From an archaeon (lineage in GTDB: Archaea > Asgardarchaeota > Thorarchaeia > Thorarchaeales > Thorarchaeaceae): DNA of 10,337 nucleotides. A program made the position numbers and the translations under genes. The notes beneath the pieces are model-generated. The model made no database searches. It worked only from the letters and a program-made list of their open reading frames with translations, and had not been told where the DNA came from. The stretch is from contig JAJRZD010000113.1 in the NCBI GenBank assembly GCA_024275415.1, positions 1 through 10,337 on the forward strand, written 5' to 3'. How positions within the stretch are numbered: position 1 is the stretch's first letter; each line of letters begins with the position of its first letter. This document shows positions 2,914 to 10,337 of this stretch, one piece after another.

Positions 2914-4110
2914 ATGACACGATTGGATGTGATTGAAGAATCGGGACACGGGGATGATCCGTACATCTGCGCGTCCTGTGGCAATTGTACCATGGTCTGC
3001 CCGACGTTCAGGCTGGGAAAATGGGAGTCCTTCGGCCCCAGAGGTCGCCTACAGGTGACAAAGAATATACTAGAAGGAAAAGCCAAATTCGATGAGGAAT
3101 ATGTCAGAAAGCTCTTCATGTGTTCATTATGTGAAAACTGTGCCTCAGTATGCACGACCAGCCTGAAACTTGACGAGTTCTGGCGGGAAGCACGCGCCCA
3201 AGCATGGGAGATGGGAATGGCCCCGAAACCTGCAAAATACGCTAGCAGTTCTATCATGCGATATGGTGACCCACTTGCGATGGGCTCGTCGTCAAGACTA
3301 CGGTGGGCTCAAGACTTTGAGATCGACATAACAGACAGGATAGAAGCCAATGCAAAGGTGGGTTATATCCTCGGTTGCGATGTGGCACTGAAGCCCCAGC
3401 TCAACGATATTGCCCGTTCAATGGTAAAGATTCTCGAACACGCAGGAGTAGAATATACCCTGCTTGGAGAAAAAGAAACCTGTTGCGGAGCTCCCATGCT
3501 TTGGGCGGGGAACAAGTCCGAAGTCCATCTTATTGCGGAGAAGAACTATCTTCTGCTTGAAGAACTTGGTGTGGAAAAGGTCATCTTCAGCTGTCCTTCG
3601 TGCATCTACATATGGCATATAGTCGGTTCTACGACTCCACACAAGAGAGGGAACTCGCCACTCAAACTGTACACATCCTCCCAGTTCATCAGCATACTCG
3701 ATAAGAACGGATTACTTGCATACAGAGAGCAGCCGATGATCACAGTGACCTATCATGACCCATGTATCTCAGCACGCAGGCTTGGGATCTATCATCAGCC
3801 ACGAGACCTTATTGAACACATCCCAGGGGTCTACAAAGTTGAGATGGCATATTCTGGAACAGAAACAAGGTGTTGTGGATGGCACGGATTGCTGAACCTT
3901 ACCAATCCTCTCGTTTCACTGGAGATTGCCGAGATGCGGATGAGAGACGTTTCCGTAACACCAGCCTCACGGGTGATAAGCGAATGTCCCAGGTGTATCC
4001 AAGCACTTGATACGGCAGGTCAGACCATGCAATACGAGCTGAAAGTTCAAGATATCACACAGCTGGTGGCGGAATGTCTTGTAGAACCCGAAAAGGATGG
4101 AGGTTCATAA
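2914..4110 (+). CDS. HdrD/GlcF-like Fe-S oxidoreductase (2x[4Fe-4S] plus two CCG domains), Fe-S protein 2, 398 aa
   Basis: CASCGNCTMVCP, GPRGRL, CSLCENCASVC; CCG domains LGC..TCCG..SCPSC and HDPC..RCCG..ECPRC. RBS GAGGT at 2903-2907. Confidence 0.9.
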   Translation: MTRLDVIEESGHGDDPYICASCGNCTMVCPTFRLGKWESFGPRGRLQVTKNILEGKAKFDEEYVRKLFMCSLCENCASVCTTSLKLDEFWREARAQAWEMGMAPKPAKYASSSIMRYGDPLAMGSSSRLRWAQDFEIDITDRIEANAKVGYILGCDVALKPQLNDIARSMVKILEHAGVEYTLLGEKETCCGAPMLWAGNKSEVHLIAEKNYLLLEELGVEKVIFSCPSCIYIWHIVGSTTPHKRGNSPLKLYTSSQFISILDKNGLLAYREQPMITVTYHDPCISARRLGIYHQPRDLIEHIPGVYKVEMAYSGTETRCCGWHGLLNLTNPLVSLEIAEMRMRDVSVTPASRVISECPRCIQALDTAGQTMQYELKVQDITQLVAECLVEPEKDGGS

Positions 4111-5816
4111 TGGTGAAGATACAACGAATCGAGGACTTGGTAGGTGCAGATAACGTTTCAACATTGGATGAGACCCTTGGTCTATACTCCCGCGATATTG
4201 CTGCATTGCCAGGACTGGCATTCCAGATTATCGATAACCAGTTTGATGTAGTCGCTCAGCCACAGACTGTTAGATCGTTGTCCAATTTGATCCGTTATGC
4301 GCACGAGCACAATATCCCAATCGTCCCTCGTGGTAGTGGAACATCAGGATGGGGAGGTGCATTGCCTACTCGTGTAGGCATCTGCATAAGCACTCTCCAT
4401 CTGTCAAACTTGGTACATATTGATGAGAACAAGATGCTGGTAACGGTGGAGGCAGGAATGACATGGAAGGAACTCCTCATGGTTCTTGAACAGATAGGCT
4501 TCACGCTTCCGGTATATCCATCAAGTGCAGCAGCAGCAACAATCGGTGGGTTTGTTGCAAGCGGGGGATTGGGAATAGGATCAGCAAAGTATGGTGACAT
4601 CCGTGAACAAGTAGCCGGTCTTGAAGCAGTGCTACCAAACGGGATGATCGTGAGAACTGGGAATTTCCTAATAAAAGAGGATGACAACGAAACCGAGGAC
4701 GGTGAGTCCGCTGGTGCATATTTGCTCTCAATCCTTGACCAAATTCCTGAAGAGTGCCGTCCAGAGCCTATCGACCTGTTCCTTGGACTATACGGTACGT
4801 TCGGTGTCGTTTCACGTGTCACCTTACGTATGGTACCTAAGTTGATCCTACAACCCTTTGCATGCGTATTTGACAATGTCAATGATCTCACATCTGCAAT
4901 ACGCGATATCCAAGACATGGCCCGACCGTATTACCTCCGGTTCATCTCTAATTCATACACTATAAAGCGGTTTACTCCTAGAAGCTCTATCGACGAGTAC
5001 GGCAAGTTCATTCTCATTGGTGCGTTGTTGGACACATACTTCCAAATCGAGGAAGACGAGCAGGCTATCAAGGACATCGTAAAAGCACACAATGGATGGA
5101 CAACACAACAGAAACGGGCAGAGTACCTGTGGGATGAACGACTGTATCCTCTAAGAATAAAGACCCTTGGTCCCAGCTTAGTCCCAGCAGAACTCCTGAT
5201 CGATGTAGAGCACATCCCGGAACTTTATGAGAATGTCCTCTCACACATCAGTACCGACTCGATCGCAATTGAAGGGACGGTTGGAAGAAATGGTACCACT
5301 TCATTCCTAGCGTGGATCCTAGATGACGAACGCAAGAAATTCCGATATACACTAGGTTGGCACAGGTCGTTTGATATCACGAATCTAGGAATCAAACATG
5401 GTGGAAAACCATATGCTGTCGGATTATGGAATGTAATTCACGCACCACACTATTATGGAAGACAGCACTACAACGCATTAAGAAGGATAAAGCGTCTACT
5501 GGATCCAAAAGACCTGTTAAATCCAATGAAAGTGTTTGGAGGAAGGGTCAATGCGAAAAAAGAATCACTTGTATTCGGTTTCACCAGTGGCTTAATTGTT
5601 GGTGCTCTTGTCCATTACGCTCTCTCAAGCACCTTAGGCACTGGCTACCTATGGTCAATATTGGGACTGCCTCATCTGGGCTTTCAACTCGGCCTATTTG
5701 TGGCGATTATTGGAGGGTTGGTTGGATTGATGTTCATCAAGTTCCTTACAATAAAGAACGCCCTCAGACTGGGCATACCCATATTGCATGTACTCCGTAC
5801 GTTTCTTAGAAAGTAG
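4110..5816 (+). CDS. VAO/PCMH-family FAD-binding oxidoreductase (GlcD-like) with C-terminal two-helix membrane anchor, flavoprotein 2, 568 aa
   Basis: PRGSGTSGWGG, VTVEAG, PSSAAAATIGGFVASGGLG..KYG, GLYGTFGVVS, DPKDLLNP, then two hydrophobic segments. Start moved from 4074 to ATG 4110, which has a TAATG stop/start overlap and RBS GGAGGT at 4099-4104. Confidence 0.9.
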   Translation: MVKIQRIEDLVGADNVSTLDETLGLYSRDIAALPGLAFQIIDNQFDVVAQPQTVRSLSNLIRYAHEHNIPIVPRGSGTSGWGGALPTRVGICISTLHLSNLVHIDENKMLVTVEAGMTWKELLMVLEQIGFTLPVYPSSAAAATIGGFVASGGLGIGSAKYGDIREQVAGLEAVLPNGMIVRTGNFLIKEDDNETEDGESAGAYLLSILDQIPEECRPEPIDLFLGLYGTFGVVSRVTLRMVPKLILQPFACVFDNVNDLTSAIRDIQDMARPYYLRFISNSYTIKRFTPRSSIDEYGKFILIGALLDTYFQIEEDEQAIKDIVKAHNGWTTQQKRAEYLWDERLYPLRIKTLGPSLVPAELLIDVEHIPELYENVLSHISTDSIAIEGTVGRNGTTSFLAWILDDERKKFRYTLGWHRSFDITNLGIKHGGKPYAVGLWNVIHAPHYYGRQHYNALRRIKRLLDPKDLLNPMKVFGGRVNAKKESLVFGFTSGLIVGALVHYALSSTLGTGYLWSILGLPHLGFQLGLFVAIIGGLVGLMFIKFLTIKNALRLGIPILHVLRTFLRK

Positions 5817-5843: not shown

Positions 5844-5934
5844 CAAATATCGCACCTAGATTCCAATGCGAAACCAAGAGGTGTTATCCCTACAAATATC
5901 GCAGGGGTAATATAATTTACAAATACATAGGGGT
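5844..5934 (+). promoter_or_regulatory. Putative promoter/operator region with direct repeats and an AT-rich TATA-like element
   Basis: Largest intergenic gap in the window (5817-5941). CAAATATCGCA occurs at 5844-5854 and 5893-5903; TACAAATA..AGGGGT occurs at 5891-5908 and 5918-5934. TAATATAA at 5908-5915 lies about 27-34 nt upstream of GTG 5942. Confidence 0.45.
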
Positions 5935-5941
5935 TCCGACT

Positions 5942-6553
5942 GTGAAAACAAAGCTCGTCAAGAAAATGTTACTTGTAACTTGCTTTCTCGTAATAATTAC
6001 CGCTGGTGCAAGCTTTGTACTTGCATTTCCAGACCAAACCAACGAATGTGATCAGTGTCATACGAACACGGACGTATTGCTACTAACTTCTAATGCCACA
6101 TCTACAGTGAATACGAAAGTAGGTGTATCATTTATTCTTGTTCTTGATGGCTCCAATGGAGTCGAGCATTTGAAGATCGTGAGCGACTGGGCAAATAACA
6201 GCCAGTTCACATTCTCAGTCATGGATGTCGATGACAATGGGGCTGATGATACAGATACAGCGACTGGAGAGATTACTGTCGCAGTGAATGTGACACCCTT
6301 AGCAGTAGGTAGTTTCACCATTAAGGTATGGGTCGCTGCGGCATCACAGCTTTCTGCAAGTACAGAAGTTTCAGTGAATGTCGAAGAGAATACAGACACC
6401 ACATTCACAACTCCAACAACTCCGACAACTCCGACAACTCCAACTGAGAACCCACTCGAAGCATGGACTTTTTACATGTACGTCATAAATGCAGGAGTTG
6501 CAATCGCGCTCTTAATAATCGGAGCTGTTATTTGTAAGAGGACAAGGAGGTAG
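5942..6553 (+). CDS. Exported, C-terminally membrane-anchored protein with a single CxxCH heme-c attachment motif (putative monoheme c-type cytochrome), 203 aa
   Basis: Basic n-region plus hydrophobic signal peptide ending FVLA; CDQCH at residues 36-40 (nt 6047-6061); beta-strand-rich acidic ectodomain; (TTP)4 linker; hydrophobic C-terminal helix followed by KRTRR. GTG start; ATG 5966 is an alternative. Confidence 0.75.
   Translation: MKTKLVKKMLLVTCFLVIITAGASFVLAFPDQTNECDQCHTNTDVLLLTSNATSTVNTKVGVSFILVLDGSNGVEHLKIVSDWANNSQFTFSVMDVDDNGADDTDTATGEITVAVNVTPLAVGSFTIKVWVAAASQLSASTEVSVNVEENTDTTFTTPTTPTTPTTPTENPLEAWTFYMYVINAGVAIALLIIGAVICKRTRR
6407..6442 (+). repeat. In-frame tandem repeat, 4 x 9 bp ACAACTCCR, encoding (Thr-Thr-Pro)4
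   Basis: ACAACTCCA ACAACTCCG ACAACTCCG ACAACTCCA read directly from the sequence. Confidence 0.95.
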
Positions 6554-6563
6554 GTGATAAGAA

Positions 6564-7061
6564 ATGGCACTTCATCCGGTATTCATTCACTTTCACACAG
6601 GCATTTTAGCAGCAAATGCAGCTCTTGCATTAGTATGTCTACTATTTAGACTGGTCTTTCGGGATGCAATAAACACCCCCGGAACAAAGATGGCAAAAAT
6701 ATTCCATGAATTCGATATCTTCATCTTCTGGGGTAATATTATCGGGTTCCTAGGATTGATTGCAGGAATGCTCACTGGCTTTATGGATTGGCCAATTGAG
6801 GCTGTACTAGCCAGTGCATATATGCGATCCAAGATACTATTCTCAGCAGTGGCTTTGCAAGTCTATATGTTTCTGATTCTTGTAAGGGTAAAGATTGGGG
6901 ATCGTATATGGACATCAACATCAGGGTTCCTGATTTACGGTATCTTGATTATAATTGGTGGCGGACTCATGATAGTGATTGCAGCAATGGGTGGAATAGC
7001 AGTCTACGGAACTTCGATCCTTAAGCCAATACTTGATTGGGTCGGAATGCCATGGCCATAA
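6564..7061 (+). CDS. DUF2231-like four-helix integral membrane protein (possible heme b-binding), 165 aa
   Basis: N-terminal HPxxxHF motif, AGMLTGFMDW, terminal AMGGIAVYG and four hydrophobic segments match the DUF2231 pattern as I recall it. RBS AGGTGA at 6552-6557. Confidence 0.7.
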   Translation: MALHPVFIHFHTGILAANAALALVCLLFRLVFRDAINTPGTKMAKIFHEFDIFIFWGNIIGFLGLIAGMLTGFMDWPIEAVLASAYMRSKILFSAVALQVYMFLILVRVKIGDRIWTSTSGFLIYGILIIIGGGLMIVIAAMGGIAVYGTSILKPILDWVGMPWP

Positions 7062-7073
7062 GAGGAGAGAGAG

Positions 7074-8255
7074 ATGGGAACCAAGACATTTGAAAGACTC
7101 AGAGAATCCGCGTTAGATGTGGAGCCCCTTGTCTGTGCAAGATGTGGCTTCTGCACTTTCGTGTGTCCCGCATATAATGACACCCTCTGGGACTCGCAAT
7201 CACCACGTGGTAAGCTATACCAGCTTCGAGAACTCATCTTGAAGAACCAACCAATCCCAGAAGACTTTGCTGAACGAATTTTCAAATGTACGCTCTGTGG
7301 TGCATGTCAAGAAATATGTCAGACGAAAATTCCCCTTCTTACCTTCTGGCAAAAAGTTCGTCAAGAAATCAACGATGCAGGGCTCTGGCCGAAGGTCGTA
7401 CATCTTCTTGATGAATCGATCCAAAGTAGCAAGAATATCATGGATCTTGACCAAGAGGACAGAATGCTCTGGACAGATATGGTCGATGATATTGTAGAAG
7501 ACCGCATTGACAAACCAGCCAAGGTGGCCTATTTTGCAGGATGCAACATATCCTTCAAAGGGACTCTTGCACCGATTGGAGAGAATACGATTAAGGTGTT
7601 TGACCATCTTGGAATCGACTTCACGATATTGGGAGAGGAAGAATATTGCTGTGGGAATCCCTATTTTGTAGGAGGAGAATGGGATAAAGCCAAAGAACTC
7701 GCCATTCATCATCTTAACAAACTCAAAGACCTCGGCGTGAAGACGGTTGTGTTCAACTGTCCGGGATGCCATAGAGCATTCAATGAGGAATACCCGCATA
7801 TGCTAGGGAAGGAGTCCGTCGCGGGTATTGAATTCCTGCCATTCTCCCAGTTCATTGCATGGATGTTGCGAGAAGGGAAACTGAAATTCACCAAGGAGTA
7901 CAACGAGGTAATAGCGTGGCATGACCCATGTGAACTCGGACGACATCAAAACATCTATGATGAAGCCCGCGAGGTATTGAACGCGATTCCGGGGCTAGTT
8001 CTACGCGAGATGAAACATTCGCGCAACAAAGCTGACTGTTGCGGCGGTGGAGGCTTACTAAAAGGCACTAATCCTCTCATGTCAGTCCGTATTTCAGGGC
8101 GTCGAATAGAGGCGACTGAAAAGACTGGAGCAACGATACTTGCGAGTGAATGCCCGTCATGCATGATGTCATTCATGGATGGCATTGAGAACACAGGAAA
8201 AAAGATCAAATTCAAAGATCTTTCACAAATTGTCGTGGAGGCACTAGGATTATAG
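7074..8255 (+). CDS. HdrD/GlcF-like Fe-S oxidoreductase (2x[4Fe-4S] plus two CCG domains), Fe-S protein 3, 393 aa
   Basis: CARCGFCTFVCP, SPRGKL, CTLCGACQEIC; CCG domains FAGC..YCCG..NCPGC and HDPCELGRH..DCCGGGG..ECPSC. RBS GAGGA at 7062-7066. Confidence 0.92.
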   Translation: MGTKTFERLRESALDVEPLVCARCGFCTFVCPAYNDTLWDSQSPRGKLYQLRELILKNQPIPEDFAERIFKCTLCGACQEICQTKIPLLTFWQKVRQEINDAGLWPKVVHLLDESIQSSKNIMDLDQEDRMLWTDMVDDIVEDRIDKPAKVAYFAGCNISFKGTLAPIGENTIKVFDHLGIDFTILGEEEYCCGNPYFVGGEWDKAKELAIHHLNKLKDLGVKTVVFNCPGCHRAFNEEYPHMLGKESVAGIEFLPFSQFIAWMLREGKLKFTKEYNEVIAWHDPCELGRHQNIYDEAREVLNAIPGLVLREMKHSRNKADCCGGGGLLKGTNPLMSVRISGRRIEATEKTGATILASECPSCMMSFMDGIENTGKKIKFKDLSQIVVEALGL

Positions 8256-8265
8256 GGTGGTTACA

Positions 8266-9996
8266 ATGCTGTTAAAGAAGCAGTTACAACAGATTGCAGA
8301 CATCGTAGGTGAAGATTACTTCTCTTCTGAGGAATACATGCGCAAGCTGTATTCACATGACGTAGGTGCTTTGCCGAACCTGGTGAATGATATTCTGAAA
8401 ACACAAGTTGATGCAGTTGCACAACCCACATCACCTGAAGTTGTTTCTAAACTACTCCAATATTGTCTCAAAAACAAGATACCGGTAATACCACGAGGTC
8501 ACGGCACTAGCGGATATGGTGGTGCCCTACCGACCAAGGCAGGCCTTGCAATTGAGATGACCCGTATGAACAAGATCCACAATGTGGATACATCCAATAT
8601 GACCGTCGAGGTCGGCGCAGGTATCATCTGGGGGAATCTCATCGAGGAATTGGAGGATCAGAACCTCACTGTCAGAGCTTATCCATCGAGCGCCCCATCA
8701 AGCACTGTGGGAGGCTGGGTAGCAGCTGGTGGTTCAGGAATCGGAAGTACGAAGTATGGTGGTGTGAGTGACCAGATAGTAGACCTTGAAGTCGTATTGC
8801 CTGATGGCAGGATCATACGCACCAGCTCACCACCTGATGACATCATAGAAGAATTCGTCAAGCAGGAATACAACTATTTCCCAAGTGATGACGAATACAT
8901 ATGGGCAATCAAAGAGGTCGAGAAAGATGATTTTGACTTGACCTCCTTCTTTGTCGATAGTAATGGCACATTAGGTATCATTACAAAAGTCGTGCTCAAG
9001 ATTATTCCATTGCATGCTATCCGCCCGTTCGTCGCATCGTTCAAGACCAAGGAACAGATGATATGGGCAATGCAGGAGATAATGAAAGAAACACGCCCAT
9101 TCTATTTACACTTCATCACAGAAGGGTTCAATCAAATGCTGACTGATGTTGACATGCCAACTCACTCCCAGCACCCATGGGTATTCCTTTGTGCCTTCGA
9201 AGGTTCAAAAGAACAACTCGATAACGAAGAGGCATCATTAAAGAAAATCGTGGATAACAACATGGGAGTCCTTGAACCACAGGAGGTTGCTGAGCATGAG
9301 TGGGATGAACGCTTCTATCCAATGCGCATCAAGCGGTTAGGGCCGAGTCTTGCACCATCAGAGGTATACGTCCCCCTTTCGAACCTTCAGTCATTCATCG
9401 AACGCGTAGACAGACACTTCAAAGGAGAGTCCTTTGCACTTGAAGGTGCAGTCAATAACAAAGGCGAAGTAGCTGTGCTTGCGTGGTTCCTTGACGATGA
9501 GAGAAAAACTATCGCATTTCTCATGGGTTGGTACCGCTCACTCGACTTTATCGAATTAGGTCTGAAAGAGAATGGACGTGCTTACTCCATTGGCATGTGG
9601 AACGTTTCTCATTCACGTTCATTTTTTGGCAAGAAGAAATACGCAAGTATTGCTCAGCTGAAAAAGAAAACAGACCCGAAGAACATAGTTAACCCGAACA
9701 AGGTATTTCCAGGACCAATACAGCTCTCAATGAGATTCAACTACTTGATAATCATAGCTGCGACTATCATCGCTCCAGTCGTACTCTGGCTCGCAGGCCT
9801 CTGGGTAGGTGATATCATGGCTGCTTACGGTCTTGAGTGGTTAGCAGTGACTAATCTCACCAGCGCCCTAGTCGCCATCGGGATAGGTCTATTTGCTGGA
9901 GTAGCTGTTTCGGAAATCGCCAACTATGTCCCAATAAATTTCATGCTCACGATGGGAAGGCCTTTCTTAAGGCTCGGACGTAAGATATTCCATTGA
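8266..9996 (+). CDS. VAO/PCMH-family FAD-binding oxidoreductase (GlcD-like) with C-terminal two-helix membrane anchor, flavoprotein 3, 576 aa
   Basis: PRGHGTSGYGG, VEVGAG, PSSAPSSTVGGWVAAGGSG..KYG, SNGTLGIIT, DPKNIVNP, then two hydrophobic segments; a clear paralog of 4110-5816. ATG 8266 is preferred (GGTGG at 8256-8260 as RBS); GTG 8257 is an alternative. Confidence 0.9.
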   Translation: MLLKKQLQQIADIVGEDYFSSEEYMRKLYSHDVGALPNLVNDILKTQVDAVAQPTSPEVVSKLLQYCLKNKIPVIPRGHGTSGYGGALPTKAGLAIEMTRMNKIHNVDTSNMTVEVGAGIIWGNLIEELEDQNLTVRAYPSSAPSSTVGGWVAAGGSGIGSTKYGGVSDQIVDLEVVLPDGRIIRTSSPPDDIIEEFVKQEYNYFPSDDEYIWAIKEVEKDDFDLTSFFVDSNGTLGIITKVVLKIIPLHAIRPFVASFKTKEQMIWAMQEIMKETRPFYLHFITEGFNQMLTDVDMPTHSQHPWVFLCAFEGSKEQLDNEEASLKKIVDNNMGVLEPQEVAEHEWDERFYPMRIKRLGPSLAPSEVYVPLSNLQSFIERVDRHFKGESFALEGAVNNKGEVAVLAWFLDDERKTIAFLMGWYRSLDFIELGLKENGRAYSIGMWNVSHSRSFFGKKKYASIAQLKKKTDPKNIVNPNKVFPGPIQLSMRFNYLIIIAATIIAPVVLWLAGLWVGDIMAAYGLEWLAVTNLTSALVAIGIGLFAGVAVSEIANYVPINFMLTMGRPFLRLGRKIFH

Positions 9997-10058
9997 GCAG
10001 CCTGACGCTCAAAAAGAGTATGGAAAAATGTCAAACGAGTTGAGACTAGGTGGCACTG

Positions 10059-10337
10059 ATGACAAAACATATAGTTGCAGCTACAAACCTTACTAGAAGG
10101 TACGGCTATCGGGTCGCCCTCAAGAAAGTTTCCTTCGAAATCGCACATGGTGGAATCCATGCACTCTTCGGTGCCAATGGTGCTGGGAAAACCACTCTCA
10201 TGCGGATAATCTCAACTCTACTACGACCTCACGGAGGAACAATCCTAGTATTTAACAAGAATCCACAGACTGATAGTATTACTATTAGAAGAAAGATAGG
10301 ACTGATTGGTGAGAAACCTCTGCTATACAACGAATTG
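10059..10337 (+). CDS. ABC transporter ATP-binding protein, N-terminal 93 aa (3'-truncated), CcmA-like; missing from the supplied ORF track
   Basis: My translation from ATG 10059 is MTKHIVAATNLTRRYGYRVALKKVSFEIAHGGIHALFGANGAGKTTLMRIISTLLRPHGGTILVFNKNPQTDSITIRRKIGLIGEKPLLYNEL. It has Walker A GANGAGKT and RBS AGGTGG at 10048-10053, and the frame is open to the window end. ABC ATPase is secure; the CcmA subtype is tentative. Confidence 0.85.
   Translation, partial: MTKHIVAATNLTRRYGYRVALKKVSFEIAHGGIHALFGANGAGKTTLMRIISTLLRPHGGTILVFNKNPQTDSITIRRKIGLIGEKPLLYNEL

Follow-up and report, generated by a model that had tools for sequence, protein, structure and literature searches.

Sulfate reducers co-encode, in their Tmc, Hmc and DsrMKJOP systems, an exported cytochrome c, a NarI-like cytochrome b and a cytoplasmic CCG protein. 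HdrE, from the HdrDE of Methanosarcina, is a di-heme cytochrome b drawing electrons from methanophenazine, and in the eukaryotic CYBDOM proteins a DOMON heme domain is joined to a transmembrane cytochrome b561. The Thorarchaeota are commonly pictured as anaerobes that live by fermentation or acetogenesis and have no respiratory chain. Here we analyse a stretch of 10,337 nucleotides from a Thorarchaeia genome (the window, which is the whole of contig C99; the genome has 3.5 Mb in 127 contigs, is 92.9% complete and is placed in Candidatus Thorarchaeota by the names of homologs), in which a unit of four genes, p1 to p4, is followed by the beginning of ccmA. The best explanation of the whole, to which we give a probability of about 45%, is that the p1-p4 unit constitutes one module of a membrane-bound electron-export system. 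The features of the unit are as follows:

5908..5919, + strand: putative archaeal TATA-like element taatataattta, about 25 nucleotides before the GTG start of p1, read from the sequence
5942..6553, + strand: p1, candidate exported monoheme c-type cytochrome, 203 residues; motif, signal-like segment and anchor read from the sequence
6564..7061, + strand: p2, membrane protein with four transmembrane (TM) helices, divergent DUF2231 relative, 165 residues; profile score, AlphaFold2 model and alignment
7074..8255, + strand: p3, HdrD/GlpC/TmcB-like Fe-S protein, no signal peptide; Fer4_8 plus two CCG domains
8266 (ATG)..9996, + strand: p4, flavoprotein of the FAD_binding_4 type resembling GlcD and D-lactate dehydrogenase, with a C-terminal hairpin of two TM helices; alternative GTG start at 8257
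10059 (ATG)..10337 (window end), + strand: 5' part of ccmA, an ABC ATPase; alternative GTG start at 10050

A sequence-only reading of the window had proposed a second transcription unit with an exported CxxCH protein, a four-TM membrane protein containing His, an HdrD-like Fe-S protein, a membrane-anchored flavoprotein and an ABC ATPase as its own maturation gene. This gene order and these families are confirmed: all five open reading frames (ORFs) lie on the + strand at the positions given there, with the domains as stated, and the gaps of 10, 12, 10 and 62 nucleotides are reproduced with the ATG starts 8266 and 10059. By spacing and order the five genes make up a compact unit that is conserved among Thorarchaeia. 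The TATA-like element sits in a gap of 125 nucleotides between the preceding gene and p1, and a promoter of its own ahead of p1 is plausible. The neighbourhood was read over three contigs, C38-C99-C62, joined by assembly overlaps plus synteny: the first 137 nucleotides of the window are identical to the end of C38, the last 141 to the start of C62, and a public contig of a relative has the identical uninterrupted order through ccm.

We propose that p4, a membrane-held FAD dehydrogenase, would oxidise a cytoplasmic substrate, possibly a 2-hydroxy acid, and hand the electrons to p3 with its two [4Fe-4S] and its CCG-type clusters. The likeliest carrier of the transmembrane step would be p2, acting as the dedicated four-TM partner of the membrane anchor of p1 and holding a redox cofactor, most plausibly heme b, with the outer H4/H9/H11 and the inner H48 as ligands; the remaining ligands could come from a second copy of p2 or from partner helices (the Met-rich start of the p1 anchor, the p4 hairpin). 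The monoheme p1, tethered outside by its C-terminal TM helix, would receive its heme through the Ccm system encoded downstream. We prefer an outward flow; its direction, the substrate, the cofactor of p2 and the formation of a complex are all points that we infer. The sequence-only reading had drawn the same wire, from FAD over Fe-S/CCG and a membrane heme to heme c, or the reverse: its end components are found, the heme of p2 would be a putative one, and no p2-p3 interface was obtained from a complex prediction. The parts of the proposal differ in strength. It is very probable that p1 is a surface cytochrome c, and we hold with good confidence, from sequence and gene context, that p2 is its membrane partner. 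That p3 and p4 feed or draw electrons through the p1/p2 pair is somewhat favoured. That p2 itself bears the transmembrane cofactor we suggest only tentatively, with the odds rather against it.

By its features p1 has the look of a c-type cytochrome of the cell surface, and it is distributed as Ccm is. It begins with a signal-like N-terminus, whose hydrophobic segment ends in Ala right before a predicted mature FPDQ, and continues with ECDQCH (residues 35-40, about 7 residues past the predicted cleavage site), a single beta-rich, immunoglobulin (Ig)-like domain, a Thr/Pro linker, a C-terminal TM helix and a basic tail. In 11 orthologs and two long paralogs from the same genome, 13 sequences in all, C36, C39 and H40 never vary, and the spacing is CxxCH or Cx4CH; a related family of fused proteins, described below as P0166, also has the heme motif, as Cx2CH, Cx3CH or Cx4CH. 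All three spacings are known to take heme. Only 8 of the 7918 ORFs of the genome (at least 80 residues) have at least two CxxCH motifs or a hydrophobic N-terminus with an early CxxCH, and three of the eight are p1 and its two paralogs; therefore the heme motif of p1 is not a product of chance. The anchor is Met-rich and opens with W-x-M-M in most orthologs.

The two large paralogs have 774 residues (C97, L003:4638-6962, - strand) and more than 473 residues (C116, L004:6215-7633, + strand). In both, many Ig/PKD-like repeats hold the N-terminal EC..CH domain at the end farthest from the membrane; a poly-Thr stalk and a C-terminal anchor are also present in the complete 774-residue protein. No p2 gene stands next to either of them in the available flanking sequence.

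Among 87 Thorarchaeia genomes of 17 genera, the p1 domain was found in 42, p2 in 35 and Ccm in 45, counts which are inflated by related metagenome-assembled genomes, kinship and physical linkage. None of the three was found outside one shared set of 5 genera; the p1 domain occurs together with Ccm in 41 of its 42 genomes, and the sole p1- or p2-positive genome without Ccm is 60% complete. In the 12 genera without Ccm no p1-type proteins were found. The genes p1, p2 and p3 adjoin with gaps of 0-18 nucleotides in every locus with enough flank (10/10 for p1, 11/11 for p3), and a closed genome and long contigs show the full order p1-p2-p3-p4. Genome G046 at first seemed to have lost p2, but a run of N lies there between p1 and p3 and nothing is deleted.

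The protein that gives the unit its character is p2. Against Pfam DUF2231 (PF09990) it scores 9.8 bits (E = 1.1), aligned over profile positions 3-132 of 139, and so it falls short of the gathering threshold of 26.4 bits; it belongs to a divergent sister family, with the same length, four-helix layout and N-terminal HPxxxHF motif. The label DUF2231-like is fair, whereas the plain name DUF2231 is not supported by this score. Several orthologs about 60% identical to p2 carry the PF09990 label in precomputed data; the orthologs as a whole are 57-71% identical (one is 50%) and almost exclusively from Thorarchaeota. A profile search of 1.8 billion representatives returned 72 relatives, mostly of 170-280 residues, and of ten distant ones that were scanned, two lay just under the DUF2231 cut-off and eight gave no DUF2231 hit at E <= 0.01. 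A feature search of the ESM Atlas gave as leads an unnamed archaeal cluster (0.90) and DUF2231-containing clusters (0.86), and a structure search of the Atlas gave unnamed clusters and a weak CcsA-like match. In the searchable literature we found no description of a function for DUF2231, the sole mention being a paper on a database of Cys annotation. A CopD-like copper protein was also considered as an identity for p2 and was dropped.

The AlphaFold2 model of p2 has four long helices (predicted local distance difference test score of 88), and its only His residues are 4, 9 and 11 in TM1 and 48 before TM2, as expected from the earlier description of a four-TM protein containing His. The mean number of Lys and Arg residues is 6.8 in loops 1 and 3 and 2.3 on the opposite side; because of this charge bias loops 1 and 3 should lie inside and both termini outside. 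Therefore H4, H9 and H11 would be at the outer face, at the end of TM1, and H48 at the inner face. H4, H9 and H11 are kept in 23 of the 24 sequences of the Thorarchaeia family, in which H48, R88, R108 and Y125 are invariant; loops 1 and 3 hold the invariant R29, I36, T38, P39, H48, D51, R108, G112, D113 and W116, and the outer C-terminal tail is conserved and ends in PWP. Over the whole superfamily only H4, G72, K90, R108, G143 and S151 are kept in at least 90% of sequences, H4 being accompanied by H9 (DUF2231 type) or by H11. H48 never varies in Thorarchaeia, which alone have a CCG gene next to p2, and is not conserved in the distant relatives. The conserved His residues would be rightly placed for cofactors at both faces, but they are too few.

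The strongest independent evidence that p2 pairs with exported redox proteins comes from the neighbourhoods of p2-like proteins in other lineages. In another archaeal assembly a p2 relative (30% identical) starts 2 nucleotides after a C-terminally anchored cytochrome c of 824 residues and 14 hemes, and this pair adjoins ccmF, H, B, A and E. Metagenome contigs hold two tandem pairs of an Ig-repeat surface protein and a p2-like gene, and at another locus two p2-like genes stand by a ccmF-like gene and an exported CNTCH protein. One Asgard family encodes a DOMON protein (signal peptide, C-terminal anchor), then a fusion of an N-terminal p2-like domain to COX3, then COX2, COX1 and COX4 (the fusion at L073:6285-7718, - strand; the family also at L071, L072, L074 and L080); another has a DOMON protein directly before a p2-like gene. 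DOMON genes of Hodarchaeales have been noted next to coxABC, in a paper which does not mention the p2-like domain and in which we did not find the DOMON/p2-like::COX3 fusion described (10.1101/2024.07.04.601786). In a NarGH-like operon (L039:736-6233) the order is a NarG-like molybdoenzyme, an Fe-S subunit, an 81-residue TM protein, the p2-like protein, a NarJ-like chaperone and TatA/TatC, so that the p2-like gene occupies the place expected of a membrane-anchor subunit. The NarM of Pyrobaculum is an anchor with a single TM helix (PMC4683180), and it may be the 81-residue gene of this locus, and not the p2-like gene, that corresponds to it. The trait common to the partners is that they are exported and have a single C-terminal TM helix, usually with Trp before it; often they are heme proteins. 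Outside Thorarchaeia no regular link between p2-like and CCG genes was seen. The pairing that recurs in unrelated lineages is the one with exported heme or redox proteins. As a separate observation, an exported Ig-like protein downstream of one p2-like gene (L078:7594-8556, + strand) has DPGVCH, with a single Cys, in place of ECDQCH.

The same variety of partners can be read in a different way. One would argue that p2 is a docking subunit without redox function, which binds the C-terminal anchor of an exported carrier and holds p1 by the membrane complex, while the electrons reach p1 otherwise, e.g. via P0166. The partners range from monoheme and 14-heme cytochromes c over DOMON proteins and proteins of about 300 residues to the small TM protein of the NarGH-like locus, and what they share is a TM helix that is C-terminal or the only one, mostly with Trp before it; moreover, COX3, to which the p2-like domain is fused, has no redox centre. 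However, H4, kept in at least 90% of the superfamily, together with H9 or H11 at the outer face, points to a role in binding a ligand or cofactor over mere packing, and a role at the outer face would leave the conserved cytoplasmic loops and the invariant H48 unexplained. The gaps of 10-12 nucleotides to p3 and p4 suggest that a single complex is assembled. We regard docking alone as unlikely, and nevertheless as a serious rival, for which the COX3 fusion and the diversity of partners speak.

The cytoplasmic end of the proposed export path consists of p3 and p4, which have the domains stated in the sequence-only reading, with the TM hairpin of p4. In p3, Fer4_8 (E = 3e-11) and CCG (E = 1e-33, two stretches) are recognised, which amounts to a 2x[4Fe-4S] ferredoxin domain and two CCG domains, with Cys motifs invariant in 13 orthologs. 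Its best NCBIfam match is LdhH, a subunit of quinone-dependent L-lactate dehydrogenase, followed by TfrB and GlpC, all below cut-off; the TmcB, HmcF and DsrK models also match, each below its cut-off. In p4, FAD_binding_4 (E = 3e-40) and FAD-oxidase_C (E = 3e-10) are found. Its nearest solved relatives, for the FAD domain only, are D-lactate dehydrogenase and LctD (E about 1e-28) and glycolate oxidase (1e-20), and against GlcD TIGR00387 it reaches 162 bits where the cut-off is 568, short of the equivalog match that fixes a substrate. Comparison of orthologs revealed no conserved His in the TM hairpin, which is followed by a near-invariant cytoplasmic tail, PFLRLGRKIFH, with K or R as the last residue in a few.

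These matches bear on a second alternative. The CCG subunits GlpC and LdhH are believed to pass electrons to a lipophilic carrier on the inner side of the membrane. In a redox loop of this kind p3 and p4 would reduce the carrier inside, and p2 would oxidise it outside and reduce p1, which would make it a small functional counterpart of CymA, NrfH or NapC. The ranking of LdhH, TfrB and GlpC among the sub-cut-off matches of p3 agrees with it; so does the position of p2-like genes in three contexts (NarGH-like, oxidase and 14-heme), which is where one would look for a quinol-oxidising anchor. A UbiA gene and a polyprenyl synthase gene lie within the cluster of a closed relative, and UbiA is present in the neighbouring FAD/CCG region of this genome; however, UbiA homologs serve archaeal lipid synthesis too, and the p2 family has no known quinone-site motif. 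In the 92.9%-complete genome the menaquinone markers MqnA/D, MqnC and MenD were not found, and MenB hits were below cut-off. Because the menaquinone pathway was not found, a route mediated by quinone is disfavoured and a protein-borne path is the simplest. We therefore consider the redox loop clearly unlikely and keep the protein-borne export path as the preferred explanation.

The sequence-only reading had called the unit self-contained, and this does not hold: a conserved cluster of about 20 kb contains several FAD/CCG modules, of which the unit is one, and some relatives have genes inserted between p4 and ccmA. In one relative with a closed genome the inserts are a further FAD/CCG pair, UbiA and polyprenyl synthase; in another they are a cupredoxin, an EB_dh-like heme protein and a Fer4_5 membrane protein. 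Upstream of p1 the window contains the following genes of the cluster:

1-345, + strand: 3' end of a FAD_binding_4 gene, which starts on C38
351-1478, + strand: CCG protein, 375 residues; start chosen by ortholog length (longest ORF 261-1478)
1498-2823, + strand: HpnE/phytoene-desaturase-like flavoprotein between two CCG genes, a position conserved in relatives
2914-4110, + strand: CCG protein
4110-5816, + strand: FAD_binding_4 flavoprotein with TM hairpin, 568 residues; start chosen by ortholog length (longest ORF 4074-5816)

The longest-ORF starts would run into the preceding genes, whereas the starts 351 and 4110 leave a gap of 5 nucleotides and an overlap of 1 nucleotide, so that the packing upstream is as tight as in the p1-p4 unit. 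Further upstream, on C38, lies an ORF of 2098 residues (L002:189-6485, - strand), outside the cluster.

The first gene of the cluster, upstream of the window (C38:83670-84890, corresponding to L002:7671-8891), encodes P0166, a protein of 406 residues with a signal peptide, CDASGCH, a p1-like domain (hidden Markov model E = 6e-14), a second Ig-like domain and a C-terminal domain of four TM helices. FAD and CCG genes begin 4 nucleotides downstream of it. Five His residues of the TM domain, H276, H307, H352, H355 and H373, are invariant in 13 orthologs. H276 opens helix A on the outer side and H307 opens helix B on the inner side; helix C carries H352 and H355 where it starts outside and H373 where it ends inside. 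This predicted placement would suit two bis-His sites, an outer and an inner one, as a transmembrane di-heme b needs, and P0166 looks like a single-chain conduit of a surface heme c and a membrane cytochrome b. Fold searches with the TM domain gave only weak matches (COX3 at E 0.035; clusters of Ferric_reduct, heme A synthase and CcsA at TM-scores of 0.57-0.64), and the domain was rejected as a homolog of p2 (hhalign probability 0.2%). P0166 shows the architecture that had been proposed for the split p1/p2 pair, a p1-type heme domain on a His-rich membrane domain beside FAD and CCG genes. It also adds to the case for docking, as its TM domain has five invariant His residues where p2 lacks the four-His pattern.

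Downstream, the ATPase is a ccmA of 227 residues once joined to C62, where it is followed, by Pfam hits, by ccmB, ccmC, ccmE, a flavin mononucleotide reductase, a HEAT-repeat gene and a convergent ccmF. CcmE reads CPSKY, the archaeal CxxxY variant instead of HxxxY, and no CcmH was seen in the region. By these matches the gene is identified as ccmA of a full archaeal-type Ccm system. The HEAT-repeat gene, between ccmE and ccmF (L001:3345-5000, + strand), encodes an adaptin-like repeat protein of 551 residues, which is odd in a maturation cluster. About 10 kb downstream of the window, convergent with ccm and beside ccmF and a protein of 731 residues, C62 encodes a 473-residue protein with seven CxxCH motifs (L001:9799-11220, - strand), which matches cytochrome c554 and the c552/NrfA family. 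This NrfA-like heptaheme protein may be a terminal reductase that receives its electrons from the surface cytochromes.

The proximity to ccm leads to the third alternative, in which p2 stands outside the electron chain and aids the delivery or attachment of heme at the N-terminal C-x(2-4)-CH of p1-type proteins. p2-like genes adjoin ccmF-like genes in three contexts outside Thorarchaeia, and the outer-face His residues and the Trp/Pro-rich outer tail of p2 loosely recall CcmC, CcmF and CcsA. There are also weak structural matches to CcsBA (TM-score 0.58), CcmF (Z 9.0) and a CcsA-like Atlas cluster (TM-score 0.64), but these lie within the noise of helical bundles. Against heme handling, the genome holds three further p1-type proteins and a single p2, the p2-like proteins also pair with DOMON and molybdoenzyme systems, in which no covalent attachment of heme is required, and the one-to-one tandem pairing better fits a stoichiometric partner than a general maturation factor. 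We consider this role of p2 very improbable.

Several observations weigh against p1-p4 as an electron-export module with p2 as its membrane carrier. First, p2 has no His in TM3 or TM4, and for this reason p2 alone cannot build the two bis-His hemes of HdrE, DsrM or NarI. No cytochrome b family of this kind was matched in Pfam or NCBIfam, and a Foldseek search of the PDB with the p2 model gave no hit at E <= 0.001; the VIA-align Z scores of 11-12 (best 11.6, to designed helical bundles) are at a level that is uninformative for helical bundles. The earlier proposal that p2 could replace HdrE is supported in part: p2 relatives pair with exported redox proteins, and the His pattern of HdrE, DsrM and NarI is absent from p2. 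Second, in some exported partners of p2-like proteins (about 300 residues, with a C-terminal anchor) neither a heme motif nor a Pfam family was recognised, and COX3, to which a p2-like domain is fused, is a non-redox subunit; pure docking fits both cases equally well. Third, no conserved distal His or Met was found in the alignment of the p1 ectodomain, and in the two Ig-repeat paralogs of 470-770 residues the heme motif is membrane-distal, which is awkward for a fixed wire. Finally, C99 and C62 are joined by the 141-nucleotide assembly overlap only, though the syntenic contig has the same direct order. A predicted complex of p2 and p3 with two hemes (ipSAE 0.00 and 0.01, mark 0.32) weighs neither way on binding.

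In the searchable literature we found no relevant paper describing c-type cytochromes or Ccm in Thorarchaeota, nor a description of the p1-p4 unit. The unit suggests that some Thorarchaeia place electrons outside the cell, which is relevant to models of the origin of eukaryotes that are based on syntrophy; possible acceptors are minerals, a partner organism or the nearby NrfA-like heptaheme protein. It also offers a testable role for a domain of unknown function, as membrane partner of tethered extracytoplasmic heme proteins, in contexts that include cytochrome c, heme-copper oxidases linked to DOMON proteins, and NarGH-like enzymes.

Compared with TmcABCD, HmcABCDEF and DsrMKJOP, the likeness lies in p1-p3, where an exported c-type cytochrome, a membrane subunit and an HdrD-like CCG protein stand together. 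Contrastingly, the place of the NarI-type cytochrome b is taken by p2, a DUF2231-like protein of four TM helices without the four-His pattern, and p1, with one heme, a beta-sandwich fold and an anchor at its C-terminus, is not a cytochrome c3. The unit also includes p4, a membrane-anchored FAD dehydrogenase, and it is found in an Asgard host with no dsr context seen. Therefore the unit resembles these systems in layout and is not a member of them, since the NarI-type cytochrome b is absent and the cytochrome and the dehydrogenase differ. HdrDE is similar in having the gene of a CCG/Fe-S subunit beside that of a membrane subunit, but p2 has neither the fold signature nor the His pattern of HdrE, and there is no sign that p3 reduces heterodisulfide. 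With GlcDEF and the pairs of D-lactate dehydrogenase and HdrD-like protein the unit shares, at the level of domains only, a FAD_binding_4 flavoprotein and a Fer4/CCG protein; it differs in the TM hairpin of p4 and in scores far under the equivalog cut-offs. To our knowledge, linkage to cytochrome c and ccm is not a feature of those systems.

CYBDOM offers a likeness of another kind, an extracytoplasmic beta-sandwich heme domain together with a small helical membrane domain, and in other Asgard lineages p2-like genes follow directly after DOMON genes. The p2-like proteins differ in having 4 TM helices and not 6, in being encoded by separate genes or as a COX3 fusion, and in showing no detected homology to b561. 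It could be, although we regard it as somewhat unlikely, that the DUF2231-like superfamily consists of unrecognised small membrane electron-transfer subunits for anchored extracytoplasmic heme proteins, working independently of quinone in Thorarchaeia. If this were true, such quinone-independent export of electrons, from cytoplasmic flavin/Fe-S dehydrogenases to the cell surface, would bear directly on models of syntrophic electron transfer in Asgard archaea and on eukaryogenesis. By analogy, c-type cytochromes, DOMON proteins and enzyme anchors would then be the partners of the DUF2231-like proteins, whose role would be like that of b561 in CYBDOM.

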